A DNA stretch of 64,000 bases from Verrucomicrobiota bacterium (lineage in GTDB: Bacteria > Verrucomicrobiota > Verrucomicrobiia > Opitutales > Seribacteraceae). Every line of letters begins with the position of its first letter. The stretch's first letter is position 1. A program made the position numbers and the translations under genes. The stretch lies in NCBI GenBank assembly GCA_027622665.1, contig JAQBYT010000016.1:15203-79202 (forward strand). The letters are read 5' to 3'. The notes under the pieces are model-generated. The model was not told the origin of the DNA. It saw only the letters and a list, made by a program, of their open reading frames with translations, and ran no database searches. Below, in pieces: positions 23,542 through 38,647 of this stretch.

Positions 23542-23994
23542 ATGTTACGAGGCATCTCACCACTTCTTAGTCCCGACCTACTCGAAACCATGTATCGCAT
23601 GGGACATCACGACGAAATCATTTTCGGTGATGCACATTTCCCAGGTGAAAGCTGCAACACGAAAATCATTAGAGCCGATGGGTTGCAAATTGACGATCTT
23701 CTCGAAGCCGTACTCCCGCTCTTCGTACTCGATCACGTCGTCGACAATCCCGTCATGATGATGGAACCTCTACCTGAAGATAAAGCCGACGCTAAAATTT
23801 CAGCCGACTATAAAAAGGTGCACGATGGTTACCACGAAATCGTACAGAAGCATTATCCCGACACCGCTCCCATCGCACAAGTAGGGAAATGGGATTTTTA
23901 CGAGCAAACCAAAAAAGCTTTCGCCGTCGTCATGACCGGCGACACACGCATTTACGCGAACCTCATTTTGGCGAAGGGCGTTACTACTTGGTAA
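23542..23994 (+). CDS. fucU: RbsD/FucU-family mutarotase (L-fucose mutarotase-like)
   Basis: MLRGISPLLSPDLL, MGHHDEIIFGDAHFP, DFYEQ, VMTGDTRIYANLILAKGV. Confidence 0.88.
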   Translation: MLRGISPLLSPDLLETMYRMGHHDEIIFGDAHFPGESCNTKIIRADGLQIDDLLEAVLPLFVLDHVVDNPVMMMEPLPEDKADAKISADYKKVHDGYHEIVQKHYPDTAPIAQVGKWDFYEQTKKAFAVVMTGDTRIYANLILAKGVTTW

Positions 23995-24549: not shown

Positions 24550-25365
24550 CTATCCGCGGGATTTTCCTCCGGAAATATTGACCGTGGTTCCGTGCAGGTA
24601 GGAAGCACGATCGGAGGCAAGAAAAACAACTAAATCCGAAACCTCAGAAAGTTTTCCGCTTCGACCTAAGGGTATGGAAGATCCATCCTTGGAACGCAAT
24701 TCCTCCACCGAGATTCCACGTGTGTATGCAAGAGATTCCTCATAGGTATCACTTCTCATGCTCGTGGCCTCCATGATTCCCGGGGCTACTCCCACGACTC
24801 GAATACCCTTGTTCCCTAGCTCCTTGGCCCACGAACGGGTAAGGTTTTGGTTGGCCGCCTTGGTCGCAGCATAAACGCTTTGGCCTTCACTTCCCTCCAT
24901 GCCGGATTCGGAAGACATGTTGATTAGCACTCCGCCTTTTCCATCAGCCAACATAGCTCGAGCAGCTGCTTGGGCACAGAGAAACTGCCCCTTTACGTTG
25001 ACGGCGAAAACCTTGTCCCAGATTTCCTCGGTCAGTTCCTCCTTGCCGGTGGGGTCAACGAGGAGACGGGGAACGTTAATGCCGGCATTGTTTACGAGGA
25101 CGTCGAGACGCCCGAAACGCTCGACTGCGGTGGCCACCATATTCTCTACGTCAGCCTTGGAAGTAACGTCGCAGCGAACGAAAACAGCTTCACCGGAGCC
25201 AAGGGAAGAAATTTCCTCGATTGCCTGAGCTCCTTGTTCCTCGGCGAAGTCAGCCAGAATAACGTTGGCCCCGACTTCGGCGAAGCCCTTGGCTACTGCA
25301 AGACCGATTCCGCAAGCGCCACCCGTGATTGCTACGTTTTTTTCAGCTAGGTTTGTCCAGTTCAT
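24550..25365 (-). CDS. SDR oxidoreductase, sorbitol(glucitol)-6-phosphate 2-dehydrogenase (SorD-like)
   Basis: TGGACGIG, NNAGINVPRLLVD, NMSSESGMEGSEGQSVYAATK, LAYTRGISVEEL: signature of the SorD-type SDR subfamily. Confidence 0.85.
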   Translation of the reverse strand: MNWTNLAEKNVAITGGACGIGLAVAKGFAEVGANVILADFAEEQGAQAIEEISSLGSGEAVFVRCDVTSKADVENMVATAVERFGRLDVLVNNAGINVPRLLVDPTGKEELTEEIWDKVFAVNVKGQFLCAQAAARAMLADGKGGVLINMSSESGMEGSEGQSVYAATKAANQNLTRSWAKELGNKGIRVVGVAPGIMEATSMRSDTYEESLAYTRGISVEELRSKDGSSIPLGRSGKLSEVSDLVVFLASDRASYLHGTTVNISGGKSRG

Positions 25366-25400
25366 GCTACGAAGAGAGAAGTTGTACAAGGATGGTAGGT

Positions 25401-27209
25401 TTAAGAAAGGTCAAGCGGGTAAGGTTTATCGTAGCCTGTGTAGAGAGCTTGCTCGACCTCACGCGACCAAACCTCGCCGTTAGTTCTGAGAACTTGGGCG
25501 GCTAGTTCGAGTGCGGTTCGCACAGGTTTTTCGGCATTCTCTGCAGCGGCATCAAAAGCCGCAGCGGAAACCTCAACGTAGGGAATATCGGGCAGCTCGG
25601 TGAAGGCAAAAAATGAGCCGAATGGTTGCTCGCTCTCTACTTTTTCCATCATTACGGGAACGTGACGAAGACCGCACACACCCTTGACCATCCAGTCGAA
25701 GTCCACGGGTTTCTGAGCCTGCTGAACCATATCGTCGGAATGGGGCTCCGAAGTATTGGTCATGTGCCAAGGAACGTTGGAACCGCAAATTTGATGACGG
25801 GAAACATAATGAGCGTGCCGAGAGCCGATGGGGACGACCAGATCGCCATCTATAAAATTGACCGCTGCCGATCGCGCGAGACGCCCTTCGACTTTGCGGT
25901 AAAGGGCGGCGGCCTCTTCGCCGGTTGAAGCGATGAACACGTCGGTGTATGTGGAGGCTTCGGTCAATGAACGTAAGTTTCGATCGGATAAATCGTCTCC
26001 CGGGACATGGGCCTCCGTACCTCCCGGTAGGGCTTTCAGATAAGCGTCTACACGTTCTGGTTGCCCATCGAAGCCAAGAAGAGCGACGCGAGGTTCCTTG
26101 TCGAGACCTCGATGGCGACGAGGGTCGTTAGGACCGAGGTTGTGATGCATCGCCCCTATTTGGGCAGTGACCTCCTCGGCGATGGAAGCAAAACCGGGAG
26201 CATGCGCAACGCTCATAGGCAGAAGGAGGTCTGGGTCGGAAGCTCCTGCATAACTGTTGAGATTGCCCCCATCGGCAATGATTTCACAAGCTTGATCGTA
26301 GGTTGCCTGGGAAGCGTAATTCGTCCAGATCACCTCGGATTTACCAAATTCGGTGAGCTTGGAAATGATTTCCGGGTCGCTCCGGTCAATCAAGACGACG
26401 CGACTACCTCGACGACGGAGGTCACGAATGAGGGCGTACTCCTCCATATCGGCAAGCTTTCCGGGAGAACCTGTAATATAAACGACGGATGGAAGTTCGT
26501 CATCGGGAACGGCAGCCACGATGGTGAGGTTTATCATCGCCATGCGGGCAGTACCCGACAGATAGGCAACTGTGGCTCGGGGGGGCACTCCATAGCGAAA
26601 CTCACCGTCCGAACCGATTGTGAACACATGCTTGTTGGTACCGTAGTTGCAAGCGAATGGCTCGGCATGAGCAAGTGAAACAAGGCTTATGTCCGGATGA
26701 TGCCCAACCTTGTTGAAGAGATTCCCAAAGCCTTGTTGCTTCAAAAAGGCGGGAGCGGAACCCGGCACGGCGTTGAAAGCACGTAGGCCGCCGAGATGAC
26801 GGTAGGAGTAACCAAGTGCGGCGAGAACACCATCGGAGGCCGGAGCAAATGTTGAAGGGTCGATCGGTTCGCTCGAATGGCCGGGCGTGACGACAACGAG
26901 ATCCCCGGGAACAAAACCTGAATCCTCGGGAGCTTGCAGGACAAGCTGAAGGGTCTCATGTCCAAGAGCTATTTGATTCACACCGTGCGGCACCCGGGCA
27001 TGAGCGTCGAACTGGCGGATGGCCTTGGCGTCGGAAGCGCAACGACAATTACCAAAACCGGCGAGGACAAAACCGTTGCCGTCGAAAGCGGAAGCGGGAA
27101 GCTCATCGGAAAGAAGTCGTATCTCGTTGGGGCCTGTAAGAAAAATACCCTGATGTTCTAGTCGGGCGTTTTCAAGTAGATCGGCGGCTCGTTCTTGTCT
27201 GGATGGCAT
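25401..27209 (-). CDS. Divergent L-sorbose-1-phosphate reductase-like (SorE-type MDR) protein, enlarged
   Basis: CRCASD, HARVP..ALGHE, LGYSY..GGL, AEPFAC, GNLNSYAG, DDM, VCGL, EVWSREVEQAL follow SorE motif order; 602 aa. Confidence 0.65.
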   Translation of the reverse strand: MPSRQERAADLLENARLEHQGIFLTGPNEIRLLSDELPASAFDGNGFVLAGFGNCRCASDAKAIRQFDAHARVPHGVNQIALGHETLQLVLQAPEDSGFVPGDLVVVTPGHSSEPIDPSTFAPASDGVLAALGYSYRHLGGLRAFNAVPGSAPAFLKQQGFGNLFNKVGHHPDISLVSLAHAEPFACNYGTNKHVFTIGSDGEFRYGVPPRATVAYLSGTARMAMINLTIVAAVPDDELPSVVYITGSPGKLADMEEYALIRDLRRRGSRVVLIDRSDPEIISKLTEFGKSEVIWTNYASQATYDQACEIIADGGNLNSYAGASDPDLLLPMSVAHAPGFASIAEEVTAQIGAMHHNLGPNDPRRHRGLDKEPRVALLGFDGQPERVDAYLKALPGGTEAHVPGDDLSDRNLRSLTEASTYTDVFIASTGEEAAALYRKVEGRLARSAAVNFIDGDLVVPIGSRHAHYVSRHQICGSNVPWHMTNTSEPHSDDMVQQAQKPVDFDWMVKGVCGLRHVPVMMEKVESEQPFGSFFAFTELPDIPYVEVSAAAFDAAAENAEKPVRTALELAAQVLRTNGEVWSREVEQALYTGYDKPYPLDLS

Positions 27210-27228
27210 TTTTATAAAAAGTTAAAAT

Positions 27229-27507
27229 TCAAACCTGAGGAGGAGCATCGGAATAGAACAAGTCATCCAGACTATCCCACGCACCCGGAGCTCCGGGAAG
27301 AGATAATCGCCGGGTAGTCATTACATTCCCCATGTCGCGAAGGTCATCGCACCCGATTCCCTTGATATTATCACCAAGGGTTCGAGCATGAATAATGTAC
27401 TTGGCGGTCATCTCGAGAAGATCCGTGCACATCTGAGCCCACTTTATATCCCATGGAGTAAGAAATACGTAACCATGATTTTCCATCAGAAAGGAATATG
27501 ACGAATC
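27229..27507 (-). pseudogene. C-terminal remnant of a class II aldolase/epimerase
   Basis: SFLMENHG...LLEMTAK resembles the class II aldolase C-terminal part; in-frame TGA at 27508-27510 and no room for the N-terminal half before the E1 stop. Confidence 0.55.
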
Positions 27508-27519
27508 TCACCGGAATGG

Positions 27520-29976
27520 CTACACCCCTTCCCGGTTGCGACGCACCAGTTCCCCGTTGGTCGGGTTGGTGGTGAGTTTGTGACCATCCAGAGGGACAAT
27601 GCGTTCATGGATCGCATCAAGAATCCAGTTTGGTTGAGGGAAGAAATCTTCCTCCACCTCAGCTCCGGGAGTAATCCAGTTTCGGGACCCGACGACCACG
27701 GGCGGAGCGTCCAAGTAATCGAATGCGAGCTGGCTCAAGTTGTTAGCAATGTCCTGCATGACTGATCCTCGCTCACAAGCGTCGGAAGATAAAACGACCC
27801 TGCCCGTCCGCTTAACCGATTCCACCAATGGTTCGTAGTCGAGTGGATTGATGGAGCGACAATCAAAGACATCGCAACTCATGCCATAACGTTCCTGTAA
27901 TTGGTCGGCGGCTTCGAGTGCTCGGTAGAGGGTGGCGCCAACGGTAATCATCGTAAGATCGGTGCCCGAACGACGCTTGGCGGGAGGCCCAATGGGTATC
28001 TCGTAGTAATCAGCGGGCACCTCGGGTTCGAAAAGTTCGCCAATGTCGTACAGCCGCTGACTCTCGAAGAAAATAACCGGATCGCTTCCGGCCAAGGCTG
28101 TATTCAAAAGCCCCTTGGCGTCATAAGGAGTGGAAGGGAAAACAACCTTCAGACCTGGAATATGACTTACGATGGCACACCAGTCCTGCGAATGCTGGGC
28201 ACCATATTTGGAACCAACCGAAACCCGCAAAACCACGGGCATCTCGAGAATCCCCGCACTCATGCTCTGCCATTTGGCAAGCTGGTTAAAAATCTCGTCG
28301 CCCGCTCGGCCAATGAAATCGCAATACATCAACTCGATCAAGGCTCGGCCACCTTCCAGGGCGTAACCGACTGCAGTTCCCACGATCGCGGCTTCCGAAA
28401 TAGGAGAGTTGAAAAGGCGGTGATAGGGCAAGGACTCGGTAAGACCGCGGTAACAAGCAAAGGCGCCACCCCAGTCCCGATTCTCTTCGCCATAGGCAAT
28501 CAGAGTGGGATCATTTTCAAACCGATGAAGCACGGCCTCAAAAATGGCGTCGCGATATTGAAAGACCTTGTTTTTCGAGACAGGTTTACCGTCAACGACT
28601 CCCGCCCGCGACTTTTTGGCGAGGGCTTGGACGCGCGGGTTTTCGTCATGGGCAAGCAGTAGCTCAGGCTTTCGCGATTCATCATAGCTCTCGCAGCGAC
28701 GATTGGAAAACATGAGCTCTCCGATTTTCTCTGATGGAATACGCGGAGACACCTCCAGATCCGTGGCAAGTCGGCAGACTTTAGCCATGGCCGTTCTCGT
28801 TTTCTCAATCAAGGCATCACGGGCCGCATCATCAAGTACGCCGACCCTTTTCAATTCGGCGGAAAAACTATCCAAAGGATCGACGGATTGCCACGCCTCG
28901 ATCTCCTCCTTCATCCGGTAAGAGGATGCATCCGAGGGAGAGTGCCCGGAAAATCGATAGGTAATTGTCTCAAGGAGTACCGGACCGTCTCCCTTCTCCA
29001 ACACCTCTCGCTTGCGCTTGATTGCATCGACAACCGCAAGCGGATTGTAGCCATCCACGCGCTCGGAGTGCATGGCATCCGGGTTCACACCTGCGCCCAC
29101 TCGAGAAAGCATGTCGAATGCCATGGTCTCGCCCGCAGTCTGGCCACCCATGCCATAAAAATTGTTCATGAAGTTGAAGATGATTGGCAATCCTCCGCGC
29201 AAGGATTCATCCCAAAGCTCATGAAACTGCCTCATGCCGGCAAAATTCATAGCTTCCCAAGTTGGTCCGCAACCCATGGAGGCATCACCGATATTGGCAA
29301 TAACGAGACCATTCTTCCGGTTGACTTTCTTGAATAAGGCGGAACCAGTCGCTATATCGGCCGAACCGCCAACGATAGCATTGTTCGGAAAAACCCCAAA
29401 AGGAGTGAAGAAGGCATGCATGGAACCACCAAGGCCTCGATTGAACCCGGAAGCCCGAGCAAAGATTTCCGCCAAGGCTCCGTAGAGAAGAAAATCCCGG
29501 GCCAAATCCTTTACGCTCCCTCCTGAGGTTTCCTTTTCTACGACCCTTAGGCAGTCTCCACCGAGAAAGTCTTCCATCACGACCTGTAATTGAGCATCGT
29601 CGATTTTGCGAATAGCTGATGCTCCCTTGGCGAGAATCTCCCCATGCGAGCGGTGCGAGCCGAAGACATGGTCGTCCGGTCCCAGCAGAAAAGCCTGACC
29701 GACGGCTGCGGCTTCTTGCCCGATGGATAAGTGAGCGGGGCCCTTGTGATCGTATTCGATTCCCTGATAGATTCCCTGCGTCTTTATCTCCTGCAGCATG
29801 TTCTCAAACTCTCGAATGAGAAACATATCCTCATAAATACCAACGAGAGCTTCGGGCCCGTAGCTTTCCAGCTCATCCTCAATCGTTCCGGAATATTGGT
29901 TAAGAGGAATATCAGGGCAAGTCAGTTTCCCTGTTTTGCGTTCCTTTTGCGGTTCGATGATTTGCGACTTAGGCAT
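27520..29976 (-). CDS. Fused E1 alpha/beta TPP-dependent 2-oxoacid/acetoin dehydrogenase-type subunit
   Basis: [32 protein letters not shown] (TPP motif), RFSGHSPSD; beta half [24 protein letters not shown]. Confidence 0.92.
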
Positions 29977-30035
29977 AATTCAAATGGTTGCGGTAAAATA
30001 AAGGTAAGATGGAACAAAGAGAGGGGTACGAGGCA

Positions 30036-31382
30036 TCAGCGGACTGCCATGAACACGTCCTTGATTATTTCGGAGGCGGTCGGGTGCGGGAAAACGATCT
30101 CTTCGATTTCTTTTTCGCGAAGCTCCGTTTCGAGCATTACGGCAGCGCCAAAAATCATTTCGGAACAAGCACCTCCAATCATATGAACACCTAGAAGGCG
30201 GCGCGTACCTTTCTCCACCACGACCTTGCACAAACCGGATTCGTCGGGATGCTCCGCCAAGTAACGGGCGTTGATGCCCATCGGGATTTTTCCCGTAGTC
30301 ACTTTAAGTCCGCGTTCTTCCGCCTGCTCCTTGGTCAGTCCGACCACGGCGACTTCAGGATTGGTATAGATTACAGCCGGGATGGCGTCGTACCTCATGC
30401 GATCTTCTCGACCCGTAAGGTTGTGGACGACCACCTCCGCCATACGACTCGCGGCATGGGCCAACCAAGCTCGTCCCGTGACGTCGCCTGCCGCCCAAAT
30501 ACCCGGAACGTTCGTGGCGCCGCGATCATTTACGCGAATACCACCGCGCTCGTCGACGTCGACTCGCAAATCCTCAAGACCGAGTCCGGATACGTTGGGC
30601 TTACGCCCTGTGGCAACCAGAACAACGTCCCCGGGGACGGACTGAGTTTCTCCGTCGAGCGTAAACTTGACCTCCTTGTCCCCGATCTCATCCACTTTCG
30701 CACCCAGTCGAAAAGTAATGTTTTTCTTTTCCAGTTCCTTACGGAGGACGGAAGCCACTTCGGGATCCACTCCGGGACAAATCTCGGGAAGAGCTTCTAT
30801 AACGGTCACGGGTACACCGACCGAGCCGAACACACATGCAAATTCACAGCCAATCACGCCACCGCCAACAATCACCAACCGCTCGGGCAATTCAGGCAAT
30901 TCTAGAATGCCCGAGGAATCGACCACATGATCTGCATCAATGCCGGGAATAGGAGGTTTGGCAGGAGAAGACCCTGTACAGATCAAGACATTGTCGGCCT
31001 CGTGAGTTTCTCCATCCACCGTAACCGCAGGTCCGGCGGACAGGGTGGCTCGTCCGAAAACAACTTCCACCTTGTGCTTCTTCATAAGACCCGCAATGCC
31101 ATCACGCATCCGATCCATTACCCGATTCTTATGGGCATGGGCCTTGCCCAAGTTGAAACGAACGCCATCGGCTTCCACGCCGAAGATTTCCCCATGCAAG
31201 GTATGGTGGTAGGTTTTCGCGGCCTGCAACAGGGTCTTGGATGGCACGCAACCTTCGTTCAGACAAACTCCACCGAGCTTCTTTCCTTCCACCAAGAGGA
31301 CTTTCAGTCCATTCCCGGCGGCCTTTTTTGCGGCAACGTAACCGGCAGGGCCGGCGCCAATGATAGCCAAATCGTATTTCAC
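30036..31382 (-). CDS. lpdA: Dihydrolipoamide dehydrogenase (E3)
   Basis: IGAGPAGY, GGVCLNEGCVPSK, VGGGVIGCE, AAGDV, FPHPTASE. Confidence 0.95.
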   Translation of the reverse strand: MKYDLAIIGAGPAGYVAAKKAAGNGLKVLLVEGKKLGGVCLNEGCVPSKTLLQAAKTYHHTLHGEIFGVEADGVRFNLGKAHAHKNRVMDRMRDGIAGLMKKHKVEVVFGRATLSAGPAVTVDGETHEADNVLICTGSSPAKPPIPGIDADHVVDSSGILELPELPERLVIVGGGVIGCEFACVFGSVGVPVTVIEALPEICPGVDPEVASVLRKELEKKNITFRLGAKVDEIGDKEVKFTLDGETQSVPGDVVLVATGRKPNVSGLGLEDLRVDVDERGGIRVNDRGATNVPGIWAAGDVTGRAWLAHAASRMAEVVVHNLTGREDRMRYDAIPAVIYTNPEVAVVGLTKEQAEERGLKVTTGKIPMGINARYLAEHPDESGLCKVVVEKGTRRLLGVHMIGGACSEMIFGAAVMLETELREKEIEEIVFPHPTASEIIKDVFMAVR

Positions 31383-32728
31383 TTAGATGATTCTCCTATT
31401 TTGTTTGCGGCGGGATCGCCGGAATAATTTTCCAAAGTCTCGACCAAGTCCTTCAGGAAGCGAGCTGCAGGAGCACCGTCTATGGCTTGGTGATCCATGG
31501 TCAAGCTGAGGGCAATGCTGTCGACAAAATTCACTTCTCCAGTTTCTCCGCGGACAGGACGAATAGAAATGCCGCCCACGCCGAGGATCGCCACCTCGGG
31601 AATATTCAGAACGGGCGTAAAGTGCTCCACTCCCAACATCCCGAGATTGGTCAAGGTGAAGGTGCCGCCGGTCAATTGATCTGGCTGGATGGTGCCTTCC
31701 CGGCATTCCTCGGCCAAGCCACGAATACCAGCGGACAAATTGTCAAGAGACAGGCAACATGCCTTGCTCAAGACAGGAACCATCAGGCCGCGATCGGTGT
31801 CTACGGCGGTTCCTAAACTCACTTTCTCGAAACGAGCTATGCGATCACCCAGGAAATGGGCGTTAAGATCGGGATGTCGCAAAAGAGTGTGGATCAACGC
31901 GTGAGAAATCACGTCATTGAGAGAAACCTTCGGTTCTCCCGATTCCTTGCGAGCCTTGCGAAACGCTTGGGCTGCGGTAACGTCAAAGGCTGCATGCAAA
32001 GTGAGCTGGGCAGTATTCCCCAGAGACTGCATCATACGGTCAGCAATGACCTTACGAATACCCTTCACGGGGACGACCTCGGCGCCATCGATCGATCCCG
32101 GTTCTCGCATGTCGGAAGCCAAGGCCATGCCGGACAAACCTCCTCCATGGACGGGTGGTTCCAGTCCACCTTCGCGGGCAAGCGCCGAGGCGGATGCGCT
32201 CAGTCGCGGCGTGCCCTCCAATGCTCCTTGCACGTCCCGCTCGATAACGCGTCCGCCGGGTCCTGTTCCAAGAAGAGAATCCGGATCAATACCCGATCGC
32301 ATGGCAAGTTGTCGCGCCCGTGGGCTGACACCTGCAACCGACCCCTCAGCCGCCGACACGGGAGAAGCAACGGTCCCGACCGAAGCGGCGGGAACCGAGG
32401 TTTCCGAAATCGCAGGACTGGAGGTAGAATCTACCGAAGGTCCGGATGAGGCAGCTTCCGTTACAGGCCTAAAACCGGACGCATCCTCACCCTCATCTCC
32501 GATCACCGTGACGTTTGCGAGAACGGGAACGTCGTCGTCGGCTTCCCAAAACAAATCAAGAACCGTACCGGCAACAGGAGATTCCAGATCAAAACTCGCC
32601 TTGTCCGTCTCAATGACGGCGAGCACCGAGCCTTCCTCCACTTGATCACCCGGAGCGACCTTCCATTCGGTCAAGATACAACTTTCCACCGACTGACCTT
32701 GTCGAGGCATAATAACAGGAGTAGCCAT
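31379..32728 (-). CDS. Dihydrolipoamide acyltransferase (E2)
   Basis: Lipoyl domain IETDKA; subunit-binding domain SPRARQLA..GTGPGGRV; GGTFTLTNLG; catalytic DHQAIDGA. Confidence 0.93.
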   Translation of the reverse strand: MATPVIMPRQGQSVESCILTEWKVAPGDQVEEGSVLAVIETDKASFDLESPVAGTVLDLFWEADDDVPVLANVTVIGDEGEDASGFRPVTEAASSGPSVDSTSSPAISETSVPAASVGTVASPVSAAEGSVAGVSPRARQLAMRSGIDPDSLLGTGPGGRVIERDVQGALEGTPRLSASASALAREGGLEPPVHGGGLSGMALASDMREPGSIDGAEVVPVKGIRKVIADRMMQSLGNTAQLTLHAAFDVTAAQAFRKARKESGEPKVSLNDVISHALIHTLLRHPDLNAHFLGDRIARFEKVSLGTAVDTDRGLMVPVLSKACCLSLDNLSAGIRGLAEECREGTIQPDQLTGGTFTLTNLGMLGVEHFTPVLNIPEVAILGVGGISIRPVRGETGEVNFVDSIALSLTMDHQAIDGAPAARFLKDLVETLENYSGDPAANKIGESSK

Positions 32729-32752
32729 ACGTTCGTTCCTTTTCGCTTTGTT

Positions 32753-33508
32753 TTAGGCCAAGCGAACCTTCAAACCCCGCTTGCGCAGAGCTCGGGCAGT
32801 CTTGGCCGGAAAATTTTTGTCACTAATCAAAATGTCAACGCTCTCCAGGTCGCTCACTCGAGCAAAGGAAATCTTTCCCGCCTTCCGAGCATCGGCCAAA
32901 AGAATCACTTGCCGGGCATGCTCTTGAACGAGGGACTTGGTAAAAGCTTCGTTGGGATCCGTCGTGGTGAGACCATCATCGATGGAAAGCCCCATCGTAC
33001 CCATGAAGGCCTTATCCAAACGCACCTGACCGAGGAGGACTCGGGTAAGCGGTCCCACCATGGTTTGACTCAACCGACGAAGTTCGCCGCCGGTAAGAAT
33101 CACCCGAGGACCGGATTCCGCCAACTCCGCCGCGGCTCGAAGAGAATTTGTAACCACCGTAAGATCGGTCCGTCCCGCAAGTAAACGGGCCAGTTCCAGA
33201 ACGGTGCTGCCACCATCGAGGTAAATCGAATCACCTGTACCTATAAGCTTGAAGGCTTCCTCGGCGATTAGGCGCTTTTCCTTTAGAGCGAGGTTCGCCT
33301 TGTCGTCGAACACCTCTTCTTCCAATCGACTCTCCATGCTGACCGCTCCGCCATGCACCCGTCGGATACGCCCCTCTTCCTCCAAGGCTTCCAAATCACG
33401 ACGCACGGTTGCAACCGAAACCTTAAGGTCGGATTTCAAATCCTCGACCCGAGCAACGCCGGCCTTGCGAATGAGGTTTCTCATACGCTCACGCCTTTCG
33501 GGTGCCAA
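32753..33508 (-). CDS. DeoR/GlpR-family transcriptional regulator
   Basis: VSVATVRRDLEALE, RRVHGGA, YLDGGSTV, VVTNS, LTGGELR; start taken at TTG 33508. Confidence 0.93.
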   Translation of the reverse strand: MAPERRERMRNLIRKAGVARVEDLKSDLKVSVATVRRDLEALEEEGRIRRVHGGAVSMESRLEEEVFDDKANLALKEKRLIAEEAFKLIGTGDSIYLDGGSTVLELARLLAGRTDLTVVTNSLRAAAELAESGPRVILTGGELRRLSQTMVGPLTRVLLGQVRLDKAFMGTMGLSIDDGLTTTDPNEAFTKSLVQEHARQVILLADARKAGKISFARVSDLESVDILISDKNFPAKTARALRKRGLKVRLA

Positions 33509-33535
33509 GTCTGCTCTAACTTCAAGAATCACAAA

Positions 33536-33575
33536 TGATTGGTTTTGATCGTTTTTGATCGTTTTTGAAAGAAAA
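33536..33575. promoter_or_regulatory. Putative DeoR-family operator: four phased 10-bp direct repeats
   Basis: TGATTGGTTT TGATCGTTTT TGATCGTTTT TGAAAGAAAA directly upstream of the DeoR gene. Confidence 0.7.
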
Positions 33576-33622
33576 GCAATCAAGAAACCGTAGTTTTTCG
33601 TTACGGAAAAAACGAAAGCCAG

Positions 33623-34831
33623 CTAAATTCGAGAAGAAAGAACCAGTTCCAAAAGTTCGGCCGCGACCTCTTCGGGAGCATCTCTCCAAAGATCGGACAG
33701 GACGGCTTCGGGGTCATCTTGGCCTGTTTCATCACACAGGCATTGCAAAGCGATGGCTACCCCTCGAGCCAGTCGATTGGGTTTCACCCCCGCCTCCGAA
33801 GCAAGCAACATGGAGCCGACCAGACGATCCTCCCAACCAAGTTTGCGAGCCGGATCTCGAGTTACTCGGGCGACCGGATCACGAAGGAAGGGGTTGACCA
33901 TGCGAGTAACCGCATCCTTGGCATAGGCGCGAAAGCCGTCCTCGGTAAAAAGCTCGTCATCCATCTCGCCATACTTGTGCCGCAAACCGATTCCAGATTC
34001 CTCAAGAAAAGCTTCTTGCGCAAAGGCCATGAGGTCTTCGCGCTTGCCTGCCTCGTGCATAAAACCAAGCCCTTGTTCCCGAGCCAAATAACCAAGCAAG
34101 GCATGGTTGGCGTTGTGACCGAGGAATTTAGTGATGGCAAAAGGATCGAGGTCGGGTTTTTCAATGAAGGCGGAAAGTCCGCGCTCAAAGTTCGGCAAGG
34201 TGACTTGGTCGACGAGGATTTCGCTGAAAGACTCGACGAGGAAGGCACGAGGGAAACCGGGAACAATCGGGGCGAGACCTTCGTCGGTAATGCGCACGGG
34301 GTCCGCCACCACGGAACACATCTTGGCAATAACAGTCTCCGAAAACTGGACGCTTTCTCCGAAACCTCCCGGAGCATGACCGAGACAGGCGTCTCGTAGA
34401 CGTAAAGCAGCCCGAGAATCGTTTTCAGCGGCGTAGGTGACGCAGGTCGGCAAGGCAGGATCCGCCATCTTCATAGAAAAACCTTCCGCGAGAAGGGAAG
34501 CGACAGAGGCTTCGCCCACGTCGTACAACGTGAAACTCGGGAGCGCGGTCGCCAATTCGCTCGCCTCGGAAATGGCCCGCACGAGCGCTTCACGATCCTC
34601 ATCCACCAATGGGTTGAGGATTTCCACACCCTCCACGCATATCGTCTCCACCGAAGAGCTCCCCGCAATATTGCAAAAGTAGGTTCCTTCGGCAGCCCGC
34701 AAGGCAGCCACGGATTCGGCATCGATTTCCGAAACGACCAGTCGGGAAAAGTTCCCCGAGCGAAAAGCTTCGGGAAGAAAGAGTCCTCCTTGAATGGCTC
34801 CGAAACCGAAGCCGACGAAAGTGCGGCTCAA
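33623..34831 (-). CDS. Mannitol-1-phosphate/polyol-phosphate dehydrogenase-like (long-chain MtlD family)
   Basis: FVGFGFGAIQGG Rossmann start, YAAEND, KFLGHNANHALLGY, RMVNPFLRDPVARVTRDPARKLGWEDRL. Confidence 0.75.
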   Translation of the reverse strand: MSRTFVGFGFGAIQGGLFLPEAFRSGNFSRLVVSEIDAESVAALRAAEGTYFCNIAGSSSVETICVEGVEILNPLVDEDREALVRAISEASELATALPSFTLYDVGEASVASLLAEGFSMKMADPALPTCVTYAAENDSRAALRLRDACLGHAPGGFGESVQFSETVIAKMCSVVADPVRITDEGLAPIVPGFPRAFLVESFSEILVDQVTLPNFERGLSAFIEKPDLDPFAITKFLGHNANHALLGYLAREQGLGFMHEAGKREDLMAFAQEAFLEESGIGLRHKYGEMDDELFTEDGFRAYAKDAVTRMVNPFLRDPVARVTRDPARKLGWEDRLVGSMLLASEAGVKPNRLARGVAIALQCLCDETGQDDPEAVLSDLWRDAPEEVAAELLELVLSSRI

Positions 34832-34843
34832 GACAAGACTCCC

Positions 34844-36163
34844 CTACTCCGCCGAAACGGCTTTACGAGCATGGGCAAGAACTTCCTCGGGGCCTTGATC
34901 CACGGATAATCCTTCCCCTAGACGGTCCTCACCAAAAGGTTGAAAAGCATGACCGAACTCGGCGAAAAAATCGTTCTTGGCGAAAACGTCGGCGAAGGAG
35001 TTTTTGGCCCATTCGCTGAGGTAGCCCATGCCCATCATACCTTGCAATACGGTGTGAGCATAGAGGATGCGTCCACCTTTGAGAAAAACCGAGCGAAGGG
35101 GATCGAGGGCGGCGGAATCGAAGTCATCGACAAACTTTTGCCCGGGGCCATTCATTTCCGTTCCTCCGATAAGGGGCAACCCGCGTCTCTCGACAAGAGC
35201 GACCACTTCCTGAAGGTTGCGAAGTTTTTCATCGGGAGAACCGGGCGTGTAGTTCCGGTCGGGAATAACGTTGAAGGCAGCCACTCCCGACTCCATCCCG
35301 ATGTCGATCAGCTCCTCGATGGCTTGCTCCCCGGAGGAACAACCATCCAGCCAAGCAAGAGTGGGGATTGCTCCACAAAGCAGGGAAAAACGATTCATGT
35401 CCGACATCTTCGGGAAAGATCCCGTATCGGGCTGAACGTATCCTACGCCACCTCGCTTCATGGTCTTTCCCCGCAGCAAATCGGTCAGACCGCGACCCTC
35501 GGGAAGGTCGACAATGTCCTCGGTTGCTACGCCCAGCTTATCCCCCCAGTATCGGGCCAAGGCTTCGGCATCGGGAAATTGAGACGCGGCCTTCCGAGCG
35601 TAGGCCACGCAAAGGTGACGCTCGGTGGCATTGCCGGCAGGCGTAAGGGGCAAAACGTCGGCATCGTAGTCGAGGATAACCGGAGCGAGGTGCGCATTCA
35701 CGCGATCAACGAGACCACGATTGCGATCGGCGGACGTGTTTCTCATCCCGTCGAGAAAGGTTTGAGCCTCGGCTGGAATGTCGGTCGTGGTGAACCCGGT
35801 TCCCATGTGGTAGCTAATGCCGGGTTCGCCGGGAGAATTGATTTCCCGATCGGCGAACTCAGGCACGAACACTCGAGATTCCACACCCACGGCGCCCTTC
35901 AAGTTGAGCAAGCGACCCGCAGCCAGAAATTCGTCAAGCCCATCCAAGCAATCGAATTCCACGATCCCGGAGGTTTCCAATCCGTGTCGCTTGGCTTCGA
36001 GGGCAAAGTGACTGGGAGAGTATCCCCGATAGTTGTAAGAAAAGAAAGTATGGGCGTGCAGGTTTAAGATTGGCTTCGGTTCGGGAAAGGCTTCTCCGGA
36101 CAAACCTTCGAGGGTTTGGCGTCGAATGGAGGAATCGAAATCGTCGATTGGGTTTTCGGACAT
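34844..36163 (-). CDS. PHP-fold metallo-hydrolase-like protein
   Basis: LNLHAHTFFSY, GIVEFDCLDG, GVESRV, GGTEMN pattern typical of PHP domains. Confidence 0.65.
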   Translation of the reverse strand: MSENPIDDFDSSIRRQTLEGLSGEAFPEPKPILNLHAHTFFSYNYRGYSPSHFALEAKRHGLETSGIVEFDCLDGLDEFLAAGRLLNLKGAVGVESRVFVPEFADREINSPGEPGISYHMGTGFTTTDIPAEAQTFLDGMRNTSADRNRGLVDRVNAHLAPVILDYDADVLPLTPAGNATERHLCVAYARKAASQFPDAEALARYWGDKLGVATEDIVDLPEGRGLTDLLRGKTMKRGGVGYVQPDTGSFPKMSDMNRFSLLCGAIPTLAWLDGCSSGEQAIEELIDIGMESGVAAFNVIPDRNYTPGSPDEKLRNLQEVVALVERRGLPLIGGTEMNGPGQKFVDDFDSAALDPLRSVFLKGGRILYAHTVLQGMMGMGYLSEWAKNSFADVFAKNDFFAEFGHAFQPFGEDRLGEGLSVDQGPEEVLAHARKAVSAE

Positions 36164-36211
36164 ATAGAAAAGTGAGCTGGAAGGATTGAGGAAAAAGAAA
36201 GTGAACGAGGC

Positions 36212-37252
36212 TCAGGTCTCGTCCACACCGACACCGAATTGATCGGCGAGGGCCAAGCATTCGTCAAGACTCTTGACGCCATCGGTACAAGTCGGGTCGG
36301 ACAAGGAAGCGGTCGCGGCGCAGGTACCGGCAAGGAGGGAACGATCCAGTTCCCAATCTTCGTGAATGCCGTATAGCATTCCCGCACAAAAGGCGTCGCC
36401 CGCGCCGGCTGCTCCAGCAACGTAACCTTTGGGCAAGGACAAGGAACCTTGCCATGCTGATTCACCGGAAACCGAACAAGCGTATGCGCCTTCGGGAAAG
36501 TGAATGGCCACCAGTTCGCGAGCTCCCAATTCCATAAGGCGTTCGGCTGTCTCCCTCACCGAGGATTCGTTCAGCTTGTCTCCGTCGCGAACGGAAATGC
36601 CGGTAACCTTGCTCGCCTCGATTTCGTTGAGTATGCAATAGTCGACCTGCTTGAGGGCAGGGCTAACGATTCTCGAGAATCGATCGCTGTCCTCGCTTAC
36701 CACGTCCAAACTAGTCTTTAAACCGGCTTCTCGGGCCATTGCCAATATGCGGGCGCCACGAGTCCCATACTCGGAATCCTCCGCGTCGATGGCATCCAGC
36801 AAAAGCAAATAACCAAGGTGAAAGATCCGGGCGTTGGAAGCGGAAAAGTCGAGGTCGCTTCCAGCCCATTCGGCATTGGCTCCGCGATTATGGAAAAACG
36901 TACGGCGTCCGCCGTTCTTCTCGGTCATCACGTCAGTGTAGGAAGTGGAGGCATTTTGGTTGACCGTGATGAATCGAGGATCGACACCGTGGCGACGGCA
37001 ATCCTCGAGGATAAGCTCCCCAAAGGCGTCCTTACCCACGAAACCGGCGCCTTCGAGCGGGAATGGGGCTCCCATCTTGGCCAGGTCCAACAAGACATTG
37101 TAGGGCGACCCCCCCGAGCCTTGCGACTGGTCGTAAATGTTGGCCAGTTGCTCGTGCTTGGGATAGACGTCGATAATCTTTACTTGGTCTATGATCCAAT
37201 TACCGCCGGCGAGAATGCCTGAGCGGGTTTCCGAAGAGGATTTCGGCTCCAT
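36212..37252 (-). CDS. PfkB/ribokinase-family carbohydrate kinase
   Basis: GGSPYNV, GRRTFFHNRGANA, NEIEA, GAAGAGDAFCAGMLYG; start taken at ATG 37252. Confidence 0.9.
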   Translation of the reverse strand: MEPKSSSETRSGILAGGNWIIDQVKIIDVYPKHEQLANIYDQSQGSGGSPYNVLLDLAKMGAPFPLEGAGFVGKDAFGELILEDCRRHGVDPRFITVNQNASTSYTDVMTEKNGGRRTFFHNRGANAEWAGSDLDFSASNARIFHLGYLLLLDAIDAEDSEYGTRGARILAMAREAGLKTSLDVVSEDSDRFSRIVSPALKQVDYCILNEIEASKVTGISVRDGDKLNESSVRETAERLMELGARELVAIHFPEGAYACSVSGESAWQGSLSLPKGYVAGAAGAGDAFCAGMLYGIHEDWELDRSLLAGTCAATASLSDPTCTDGVKSLDECLALADQFGVGVDET

Positions 37253-37375
37253 GTAGCGTGCGGGGGTTGTTTTAGGATTTGCAGGAAAAAACGATTTTCG
37301 CTTTACCTTTAAGGCGAAAAACGATTCTTCACCTGCATCCCAATTTCCTAAAACTGGCAAGAAAGAAAAGAATAT

Positions 37376-38647
37376 ATGAGCACCGAACTACCTCGTTCCA
37401 TTGATGGCCTGAATACGGTCACGGAAAACGTACGCTCTCATGCGGAAGCAGCTCTGGAAGCCGGCAACGGTCTCCTGCGCCTCGCTCCATGCTGGGTGCC
37501 CCGCTCCTTTTTGCAACCGGGCAAAAGACTGAAGCTCGACCCTAATGACCTCTACGCATTCGGCCTAAATCGAGGCGGCATCGACGAGCGCTGGTTCGGT
37601 TCCACGACCGAGGCGGCCAACGAAGGGCGCGTTCACGACGAAGGCTTCAGCTACGTCGTGCACGACGGCCAACGCTTTACGTTGCGAGACACGGTTGCCG
37701 AGCTGGGAGCCGAGCTTATCGGCGAATCCATCTGGAGCAAATACGGACGCTGGCCCGTGTACTCCAAGTTCTTCGACAACATGGGGCCAATTCCTCATCA
37801 CATGCACCAAAACGCGGAGCAAGCCGCGCTCGTTGGCCAGGAAGGAAAACCCGAGTCCTATTATTTTCCGCCCCAGCACAACAACGTCGGCAATAATTTC
37901 CCCTACACGTTTTTCGGCCTTAACCCCGATACCACCAAGGATCAGGTCCGCCGATGCATCGCCGACTGGAACAAGGGCGACAACGGGATTCTCGACCTCT
38001 CCGCCGCCCAACGCCTCAAACCCGGAACCGGCTGGCTCGTGCCTCCATCCATCCTCCATGCTCCCGGCTCGCTTTGCACTTACGAACCGCAATGGGGTTC
38101 CGACGTATTCGGCATGTACCAAAACCTCGTGGAAGGTCGCGAAGTACCTTGGAGTCTCTTGGTGAAAGACATGCCCGAGGACAAGCACCAGGACATCGAC
38201 TTCATCATCGACCAACTCGACTGGGAAGGAAACGTAGACCCCGATTTCCACAAAAACCATTTCCTTCAACCTATCCCCGTGGCCGACACTTCGGCCGAGG
38301 GATACGTCGATCGCTGGATCGTGTACGGCCGTATCGAGGGCAAGCAGGACTTCAGCGCCAAGGAACTTACGGTAGACCCGGGTTCGTCCTGTACCATCAA
38401 GGACAACGGAGCCTACAGCATGATCGTGGTGCAGGGCGGCGGCAAGATGAACGAACTGGTGCTCGATTGCCCGAAGATGATCGGATTTCGGGAGCTCACT
38501 CGCGACGAGGTTTTCTGTTCGGCGAAAGCCGCCGCGGAAGGCGTTCGCTTCGAGAATTCCTCCCCCACCGAACCTCTCGTAATCCTTCGCTACTTCGGAC
38601 CCGAAGCCAATCCCGACGCTCCCGAAATAGGCGACGCCGCGAAGTAA
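37376..38647 (+). CDS. Cupin-fold mannose-6-phosphate isomerase-like protein
   Basis: SKFFD..PIPHHMHQ, GKPESYYF, ILHAPG, YEPQWGSD resemble class I PMI metal-binding motifs. Confidence 0.65.
   Translation: MSTELPRSIDGLNTVTENVRSHAEAALEAGNGLLRLAPCWVPRSFLQPGKRLKLDPNDLYAFGLNRGGIDERWFGSTTEAANEGRVHDEGFSYVVHDGQRFTLRDTVAELGAELIGESIWSKYGRWPVYSKFFDNMGPIPHHMHQNAEQAALVGQEGKPESYYFPPQHNNVGNNFPYTFFGLNPDTTKDQVRRCIADWNKGDNGILDLSAAQRLKPGTGWLVPPSILHAPGSLCTYEPQWGSDVFGMYQNLVEGREVPWSLLVKDMPEDKHQDIDFIIDQLDWEGNVDPDFHKNHFLQPIPVADTSAEGYVDRWIVYGRIEGKQDFSAKELTVDPGSSCTIKDNGAYSMIVVQGGGKMNELVLDCPKMIGFRELTRDEVFCSAKAAAEGVRFENSSPTEPLVILRYFGPEANPDAPEIGDAAK

Follow-up and report, generated by a model that had tools for sequence, protein, structure and literature searches.

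A conserved Verrucomicrobiota operon joining a thiamine/lipoate-dependent complex to sugar-phosphate genes, with a possible role in 6-deoxyhexose metabolism

The window analysed here is a 64,000-nucleotide stretch of DNA from a marine Verrucomicrobiota bacterium (GCA_027622665.1, contig JAQBYT010000016.1, positions 15,203 to 79,202), whose closest named relatives are Opitutae metagenome-assembled genomes. It carries an operon in which a thiamine- and lipoate-dependent E1/E2/E3 complex stands among genes for sugar-phosphate conversion. This operon exists as a conserved module, and its E1 family is present in at least eight phyla. The module is a variant of the acetoin dehydrogenase kind and is not a pyruvate dehydrogenase (PDH), a branched-chain 2-oxoacid dehydrogenase (BCKDH) or AcoAB. 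A PHP-fold protein is the tightest partner of the E1, and the link of the module to sugar metabolism is well supported. These statements are observations of gene content, clade, co-occurrence and residue conservation. Beyond them we propose, with a probability of roughly 0.45, that the private complex would cut a 1-deoxy-ketose-6-phosphate to acetyl-CoA and erythrose-4-phosphate after a flip by SorE-, SorD- and MtlD-type enzymes.

The operon and its E1

All ten minus-strand open reading frames (ORFs) that a sequence-only reading of the window had placed in one orientation with short or overlapping junctions were found, with junctions of -4 to +59 bp when the longest ORF starts were used. Their order is pfkB-PHP-mtlD-deoR-E2-E3-E1-orf85-sorE-sorD. 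FucU does lie nearby, as had been claimed, and the lack of a transporter was borne out by a scan of 15 ORFs between 22.8 and 40.1 kb of the window. The genes are the following.

36212..37360, minus: PfkB sugar kinase (PF00294); likely start ATG 37252, 346 aa as in relatives
34844..36163, minus: PHP-fold protein, YciV/Cv1693-like, with reduced metal site
33623..34831, minus: distant MtlD-like polyol-phosphate 5-dehydrogenase (PF08125)
32753..33583, minus: DeoR/GlpR regulator; likely start GTG 33532
31379..32728, minus: E2 dihydrolipoamide acyltransferase; one lipoyl domain, E3-binding domain, catalytic DHQAIDG
30036..31382, minus: E3 dihydrolipoyl dehydrogenase (TIGR01350, 497.5 against a cut-off of 408.8); CLNEGC and HPTASE intact
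27520..29976, minus: fused thiamine-dependent E1 alpha/beta, 818 aa (PF00676, PF02779 and PF02780)
27229..27486, minus: C-terminal remnant of a FucA-like class II aldolase, 85-aa ORF
25401..27209, minus: diverged SorE/YggP-like zinc dehydrogenase, 602 aa
24550..25389, minus: SorD-type sorbitol-6-phosphate dehydrogenase of the short-chain dehydrogenase/reductase (SDR) family; likely start ATG 25365
23542..23994, plus: FucU/RbsD mutarotase, convergent with the operon
37376..38647, plus: PMI-like cupin, accessory, divergent from the operon

Pfam and NCBIfam backed the PfkB, DeoR, E2, E3, fused E1, SDR and FucU labels, and in the same scans the PHP protein, the 602-aa protein, the cupin and the 85-aa ORF gave nothing over cut-off.

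Across 201 genomes of the phylum the E1 matches fell into two tiers: tier 1 with 39 matches at 54-100% identity, including the window's genome and one partial match at a contig edge, and tier 2 with 24 full-length matches at about 36-41%, below which came ordinary E1s. The best 120 of 7998 scored word-search candidates were 72-99% identical to the window's E1 and carried automatic labels or none, and the best 80 named loci belonged to PVC, Armatimonadota, Bacteroidota, Bacillota, Planctomycetota, Spirochaetota and Chloroflexota. Orthologues at 53-56% identity were also found on 16 Rhizobiales plasmid records. Within the window's own family the E1 was present in 21 of 24 relatives, among them genomes of 1.6-2.6 Mb, and gene order was the same in most of the ten family loci fetched.

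In a midpoint-rooted FastTree tree of 71 rows, from which 18 family loci and 11 library proteins were left out, the tier-1 E1s including the rhizobial proteins formed one clade (support 100). All PDH, BCKDH and AcoAB references, labelled by record annotation or operon context and not by assay, fell within a separate 35-row clade (support 100), with tier 2 between. Among the outcomes that the sequence-only reading had set beforehand as counting against it, clustering of the E1 with housekeeping PDH or BCKDH and a lack of conserved linkage to the sugar genes were examined; neither was found, and the E1 stood apart from AcoAB as well.

Several simpler identities were considered and rejected. A housekeeping PDH is contradicted by the separate clade, by scores far under the PDH model cut-offs (TIGR03182, 190.6 against 393.85; TIGR03181, 138.9 against 411.35) and by an AceE-type PDH elsewhere in the genome. 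The E1 lies outside the BCKDH group and its alpha motif is not of the YRQ type, and it lies outside the clade with the three context-defined AcoAB references, with no acoX, acoR or bdh at its locus. Chance clustering of the operon genes was likewise rejected. Since the window's genome encodes AceE-type PDH and 2-oxoglutarate dehydrogenase (OGDH) operons elsewhere, plus LipA, the E1/E2/E3 set is a third lipoate complex.

All general catalytic residues are present in the E1, with roles taken from a portion of PMC2663715; D231, N272, H345, E528, F554 and H595 are invariant in 101 of 101 tier-1 sequences. A second set (R500, Y551, R557, S586, K590, Y591, Q640, R641) is specific to the family. R500 occurs in 101/101 tier-1 E1s and in 0/27 references, K590 in 101/101 against 1/27, Y551 in 101/101 against 4/27 and Y591 in 101/101 against 3/27; S586 is likewise found in 101/101, with mostly Pro in the references, and R557 and R/K641 were kept in 92 and 95 of the 101. 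Leaving Q640 aside, these positions align with E. coli DXS R347, the D427 region, Y392, D419/R420, R398 and R478 by MAFFT, and all but R478 also by hhalign (E 1.6e-5); the mapping onto transketolase is by MAFFT only. We take DXS R420, R478, Y392 and D427 to bind triose phosphate, and the invariant Arg, Lys, Ser and Tyr residues of the family favour a putative substrate with a distal phosphate.

With DXS and transketolase the E1 has in common a Pyr-domain signature (Y-x-x-F-x-x-R-A-x-D) and aligned Arg/His positions; it differs from them in being lipoyl-dependent and in lacking the Asp of DXS D427, which presumably sets hydroxyl stereochemistry and whose loop here holds a Lys-Tyr pair. With acetoin dehydrogenase (AcoA/AcoB/AcoC/AcoL) the module shares a thiamine E1, a lipoyl E2 and an E3, and two aco references share the alpha HR.H motif and the beta WGG motif. 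The AcoA-type HR.H motif and the DXS-like site features are in line with the acetoin-dehydrogenase-like chemistry put forward by the sequence-only reading. Against this likeness, the window's E1 is only about 31-32% identical, is fused, has a long alpha insertion and belongs to a separate clade, and the module has sugar-phosphate partners and extra basic residues and no acoX, acoR or butanediol dehydrogenase. Ketol cleavage is a proposed likeness, and an AcoC-type hydrolase-fold E2 is shared by the rhizobial members.

Two further groups of E1 proteins were seen. A tier-2 sister clade (L051-L066; DeoR-E1-E2, about 38% identical) has Y551, S586, Y591 and the PHP partner in common with tier 1, and tier-2 E1s may take a different substrate. 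Five full-length family members in alignment A1 (P0129, P0134, P0135, P0146 and P0151) have neither the catalytic His nor the thiamine diphosphate (ThDP) motif and are apparent pseudo-E1 proteins.

Sugar-phosphate partners of the complex

Neighbours were counted in 47 named loci of at least 15 kb using our own gene calls, in which L050 lost its E1 call. E2 was found in 44 of them, E3 in 36, DeoR in 25 and GntR in 11; an SDR in 36, a SorE-type gene in 32, a PHP gene in 31 and all three in 25; and RhaB, FucI, RhaA or FucU in 15. A dehydratase or aminotransferase was not a recurrent neighbour of the E1 in the loci examined, and HAD phosphatases resembling phosphoglycolate phosphatase occurred in 8 of 80 loci. 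Dehydrogenases of the SorD, SrlD and MtlD types occupy one slot across loci, which points to polyol-phosphate oxidation. By form, 11 of the SDRs were full aldolase-SDR fusions, 22 were truncated fusions and 24 were short proteins, contig-edge pieces being counted among these last.

Genome-wide counts agreed with the conserved linkage to PHP, SorE and SDR genes seen across phyla. The 201 genomes divide into 63 with the E1 family and 138 without. PHP, searched with a 45-row profile, was present in 61/63 and 0/138 respectively, the SorE family in 55/63 and 8/138 (its query missed the window's genome as well as two others that do have the gene at their loci), and FucI in 50/63 and 53/138. Bacterial microcompartment (BMC) shells showed the opposite pattern, with 2/63 against 39/138. 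PHP genes unlinked to the E1 adjoin RhaA, RhaB, FucI/FucU, SorD or MtlD, and when 16 regions surrounding such unlinked PHP genes, or unlinked SorE genes, were retrieved, 8 contained RhaA, RhaB or FucI.

The PHP label draws on Atlas (0.98), a profile search and the predicted fold (pLDDT 93), whose top Foldseek match was 2yb1 (E 2.7e-11), that is, YciV/Cv1693-like. The protein does not have the full trinuclear ligand set of PHP phosphoesterases. It retains His36 and His38 (HxH), Glu95 and Glu/Asp336. Other residues stand in place of the Asp that follows HxH, of two His and of the terminal His (Asn in 45/45), and 15/45 sequences retain the His that follows the first Asp. Arg182, His183 and Arg303 are invariant additions. 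A site of this kind, with one metal and two carboxylates, is reminiscent of ketose 3-epimerases. Rhizobial loci have no PHP gene, and one of them has a psicose-3-epimerase-like gene. The PHP protein is a candidate ketose-1-phosphate epimerase or phosphatase.

Labels for the dehydrogenases fared unequally. The SorD label was confirmed, the SDR passing the PRK06171 sorbitol-6-phosphate dehydrogenase cut-off (345.7 against 304) and being 49% identical to SorD of the Klebsiella sor operon. The SorE label is tentative: the 602-aa protein keeps the Zn-site motifs and is 24% identical to SorE/YggP, yet its Gly-rich NAD motif is lost or altered and no Pfam match exceeded cut-off. It has a duplicated subdomain, is 62-93% conserved within the family and gave a single-sequence fold of pLDDT 33. 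The SorE of a relative is 50% identical to annotated SorE (50-54% for the Klebsiella SorE and E. coli YggP pair). Compared with the Klebsiella sorbose pathway, the window has no phosphotransferase system, a far more distant SorE-like protein and an added cleavage complex. The MtlD label stands at family level only, through PF08125, as the protein falls under every NCBIfam MtlD cut-off (best 91.9 against 356). In addition, the YggP protein that E. coli encodes in its cryptic cmt operon (L184:5001-6278) is 53% identical to the SorE-type protein of the module in L138.

The aldolase remnant proved real. The 85-aa ORF gave nothing in profile tests on its own, and corresponds to residues 166-249, the last third, of a 250-aa FucA-like class II aldolase at 78% identity; it has matches in 9 of 40 relatives, eight of them in open frames of 240-259 aa. 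Whole in five of ten family loci and cleanly absent from four, with one locus ending at a contig edge, the aldolase is dispensable, not replaced. The earlier suggestion that the complex replaces a decayed aldolase, and with it the idea that the E1 arose for that purpose, was rejected, since E1 and intact aldolase lie side by side in relatives and the catalytic motifs are intact in all 11 full aldolase-SDR fusions. These fusions resemble RhaEW, and the isomerase and kinase genes upstream of the RhaEW and Planctomycetes/Verrucomicrobia microcompartment routes are the same in many relatives; in contrast to RhaEW, the fusions score 253.6 against a cut-off of 567.75 and carry an SrlD-like SDR, and module genomes have almost no BMC genes. 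Another aldolase/SDR fusion of the window's genome (G000:C64:26509-29643) follows an isomerase-like gene, which we take to be methylthioribose-1-phosphate-isomerase-like, and adjoins OGDH genes.

A proposed route and the alternatives

The neighbours point more to 1-deoxy-ketose substrates derived from 6-deoxyhexoses, with acetyl-CoA as product, than to glycolyl-CoA, so that of the oxidative cleavage of a sugar-derived substrate suggested earlier the sugar link stood and the glycolyl-CoA example became the less likely one. SorE and SorD convert L-sorbose-1-phosphate to fructose-6-phosphate head to tail. We infer every substrate and reaction of the following scheme, in which a DeoR-controlled module would handle 6-deoxyhexose-derived carbon by acting as an acetoin dehydrogenase on a sugar phosphate. 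A 6-deoxy-ketohexose-1-phosphate would be brought to the C3 configuration used by SorE, either by the PHP protein as a 3-epimerase on fuculose- or rhamnulose-1-phosphate, or by an aldolase re-joining dihydroxyacetone phosphate and cytosolic lactaldehyde to 6-deoxy-L-sorbose-1-phosphate or 6-deoxy-D-fructose-1-phosphate. Judging from homology, the SorE-like enzyme would then reduce C2 and the SorD-like or MtlD-like enzyme oxidise C5, giving a head-to-tail 1-deoxy-ketose-6-phosphate, a methyl ketol such as 1-deoxy-D-fructose-6-phosphate. The E1 would cleave this CH3-CO-CHOH-R as AcoAB cleaves acetoin, to acetyl-thiamine and D-erythrose-4-phosphate, and E2 and E3 would yield acetyl-CoA and NADH.

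Both aldol products could converge, 6-deoxy-L-sorbose-1-phosphate through SorE/SorD and 6-deoxy-D-fructose-1-phosphate through an MtlD-type enzyme, on 1-deoxy-D-fructose-6-phosphate. For fuculose-1-phosphate, C3 epimerisation alone would suffice for entry; rhamnulose-1-phosphate so epimerised would lead to 1-deoxy-D-psicose-6-phosphate and again to erythrose-4-phosphate. The lactaldehyde half would thereby enter metabolism, or an aldol product that is a dead end would be recovered, with no microcompartment involved. If the aldolase re-joining route applies, the module would serve for salvage, in keeping with how scarce microcompartments are and with a high propanediol yield. A wider proposal, of which we are more doubtful, is a third methylpentose route across several phyla, in which a PHP 3-epimerase, the SorE/SorD flip and a lipoate-dependent '1-deoxy-ketose-phosphate dehydrogenase', running DXS chemistry backwards and oxidatively to acetyl-CoA and erythrose-4-phosphate, would take the place of the microcompartment in many polysaccharide degraders.

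The pathway had been called undescribed, which holds only in part: a matching cluster has been noted in Caldicellulosiruptor and a Rhizobium orthologue has been mutated. The full-text literature searched, which takes in few subscription journals, held no assay of the E1 family and no account of the flip pathway. The passage of PMC8579813 (Rodionov 2021) on Athe_0695-0706 lists SrlD, SorE, LipA, E2, E3, E1, DeoR and RhaA and predicts the complex for the lactaldehyde step. According to the relevant part of PMC4187192, the corresponding Csac_0865-0876 is induced on rhamnose and correlates with growth on it, and what its genes do is described there as unclear. Like the module, this cluster has FucA- and RhaD-like genes, SrlD (51%), SorE (54%), LipA, E2, E3, a single-gene E1, DeoR and RhaA, in the gene order of loci L106 and L128; orthology is judged from gene content and order alone. 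The window differs in that, where the cluster has RhaA and LipA, it carries a PfkB, a cupin and enzymes of the SorD- and MtlD-like types.

The rhizobial orthologue pRL80083 of R. leguminosarum 3841 is 55% identical to the window's E1 over 801 aa, is nested in the tier-1 clade and has the same family residues. It is 'putative dehydrogenase, fusion' in the supplement of PMC5118466, where the numbering was matched through neighbours; the supplements of PMC3333776 contain no pRL80083 row. A review table and a preprint link the gene to the catabolism of homoserine. Its cluster, pRL80079-88, has a free lipoyl domain with an alpha/beta hydrolase, an ABC transporter and a 3-epimerase and, unlike the window, no E3, PHP, SorE or SDR nearby. 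Among rhizobial members generally, the partners of the E1 are a split E2 of the AcoC type and a psicose-3-epimerase-like protein, fructokinase, xylulokinase or arabitol dehydrogenase.

A number of results weigh against the proposed 1-deoxy-ketose-phosphate cleavage. The SorE-like protein has an altered NAD motif, the fusions keep their aldolase motifs, and tier-2 E1s lack R500, R557 and R641. The 3-epimerase role of the PHP protein is a lead only, drawn from its lost metal ligands. In the portion of PMC4187192 on products, C. saccharolyticus turns rhamnose into propanediol, acetate, H2 and CO2 at 1:1:1:1, so that the aldolase route carries the bulk flux there. The orthologue pRL80083 is reported to be required for the use of homoserine, a result that the proposed route leaves unexplained. 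Kinship confounds the co-occurrence counts, and most of the BMC contrast runs along the borders between classes. Entry of the sugar is a further difficulty: among 23 family relatives (assemblies 69-97% complete) RhaA and RhaI were found in none, FucI in five and RhaB in ten, and all four were missing from the seven congeners. The scarcity of these enzymes speaks against a simple story of rhamnose or fucose entry in the window's variant, which brings a PfkB, an MtlD-like enzyme, a FucU and a cupin of its own. In favour of the proposal, the window's genome (93.5% complete) encodes RhaA and RhaB together with a stand-alone RhaE-type aldolase and gave no BMC match; that it gave no FucI match counts against it. 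The genome has six enolase-superfamily matches, and a search for the context of a fuconate-type dehydratase met no fucose-linked neighbourhood in three listed regions.

The E1 might instead cleave an ordinary ketose phosphate (xylulose-5-phosphate, fructose-6-phosphate) to glycolyl-lipoamide and an aldose phosphate, with sorbose, mannitol or arabitol as the feed. The DXS-like site is equally compatible with this, arabitol dehydrogenase and xylulokinase in an Agrobacterium locus, xylulokinase in a Pleomorphomonas locus and the phosphoglycolate-phosphatase-like HAD proteins fit it, and the methylpentose entry enzymes known are lacking in the window's genus. We nevertheless think it rather improbable: neighbours and regulation point to rhamnose and fucose, and since fructose-6-phosphate and xylulose-5-phosphate already have routes, a SorE/SorD flip would need no private complex. 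That the E1 is a hydroxy-2-oxoacid dehydrogenase, decarboxylating for instance 2-oxo-4-hydroxybutyrate from homoserine or a 2-keto-3-deoxy sugar acid to a hydroxyacyl-CoA, is improbable. It has on its side the only genetics on the family (pRL80083, a member of the homoserine catabolism cluster pRL80079-88), basic residues that could bind a carboxylate, and the enolase-superfamily matches. It lacks a recurrent dehydratase or aminotransferase neighbour, and the rhizobial cluster is sugar-like, with a RhaS-like binding protein, a 3-epimerase, a fructokinase and a SorC regulator; moreover, pRL80083 heads its operon, so that the mutant may be polar.

The lactaldehyde step predicted in the PMC8579813 passage would have the complex dispose of free L-lactaldehyde, or of a C3 ketol such as acetol from the aldolase, as lactyl- or acetyl-CoA. 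Intact aldolase motifs and the near absence of BMC genes favour it, but it leaves SorE, the SorD/SrlD/MtlD enzymes and the invariant basic residues unexplained, many loci have a truncated aldolase or none, and a 1:1 propanediol yield leaves little lactaldehyde to oxidise; we consider it likewise improbable. Least credible of all is a sugar-inducible PDH or acetoin dehydrogenase isoenzyme for redox balance. The intact general catalytic residues, and many anaerobic hosts without another alpha/beta E1 match, would suit it, against which stand the AceE PDH, the separate clade, the obligate PHP partner and a locus that, in contrast to the fetched aco operons, has no acoX, acoR or butanediol dehydrogenase.

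Fucose and rhamnose rank among the main sugars in the glycans of algae and plants, and about one third of the sampled Verrucomicrobiota genomes (63/201) carry the module, almost always without microcompartment genes. If the proposed cleavage of 1-deoxy-ketose phosphates is true, a sugar phosphate would join the substrates of lipoate-dependent complexes and PHP proteins would gain a non-hydrolytic role. It would also explain the unassigned rhamnose-induced cluster of a biofuel organism and make thousands of '2-oxoisovalerate dehydrogenase' proteins candidates for re-annotation. Since Caldicellulosiruptor and R. leguminosarum are tractable hosts available in culture, the question lends itself to direct testing.

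Further features of the window and related loci

In three Rhizobiales loci (L151:15001-20649, L152:12001-16534 and L153:12001-16494) the E1 is accompanied by a free lipoyl domain and by an alpha/beta hydrolase of the AcoC type; two of the three are without an E3 or a CoA-transferase domain. These loci adjoin xylulokinase, arabitol dehydrogenase or 3-epimerase genes.

Among the accessory genes of the window, PfkB had ribokinase and ketohexokinase as top PDB matches. FucU adjoins the operon in seven of the ten family loci fetched. The PMI-like label of the cupin held only through Atlas features, its PDB match having E 0.62, and a paralogue at 27-29% identity occurs in three of the ten loci. Upstream of pfkB (window:37253-37400) a TTTTC(C/T)TTG element, usually followed by an A-run, was seen in all eight family sequences compared and is probably promoter plus operator; the same interval holds a short duplication that is not in L071.

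A two-domain PPK2 (window:38664-40136) lies upstream of the operon in 6/10 family loci, probably as synteny only. Between fucU and sorD, window:23995-24546 encodes a 183-aa protein with a signal-like stretch and a weak PsbP_2 match, for which the ten family loci held no counterpart. A gene for a phage CII-like (CP76) regulator lies amid housekeeping genes at window:22807-23247. At the far end, window:58013-64000 is an ORF of more than 1996 aa with an A-rich, Glu/Ala/Gln-rich tail, preceded by what we take to be an AAA-ATPase/DUF58-like set.

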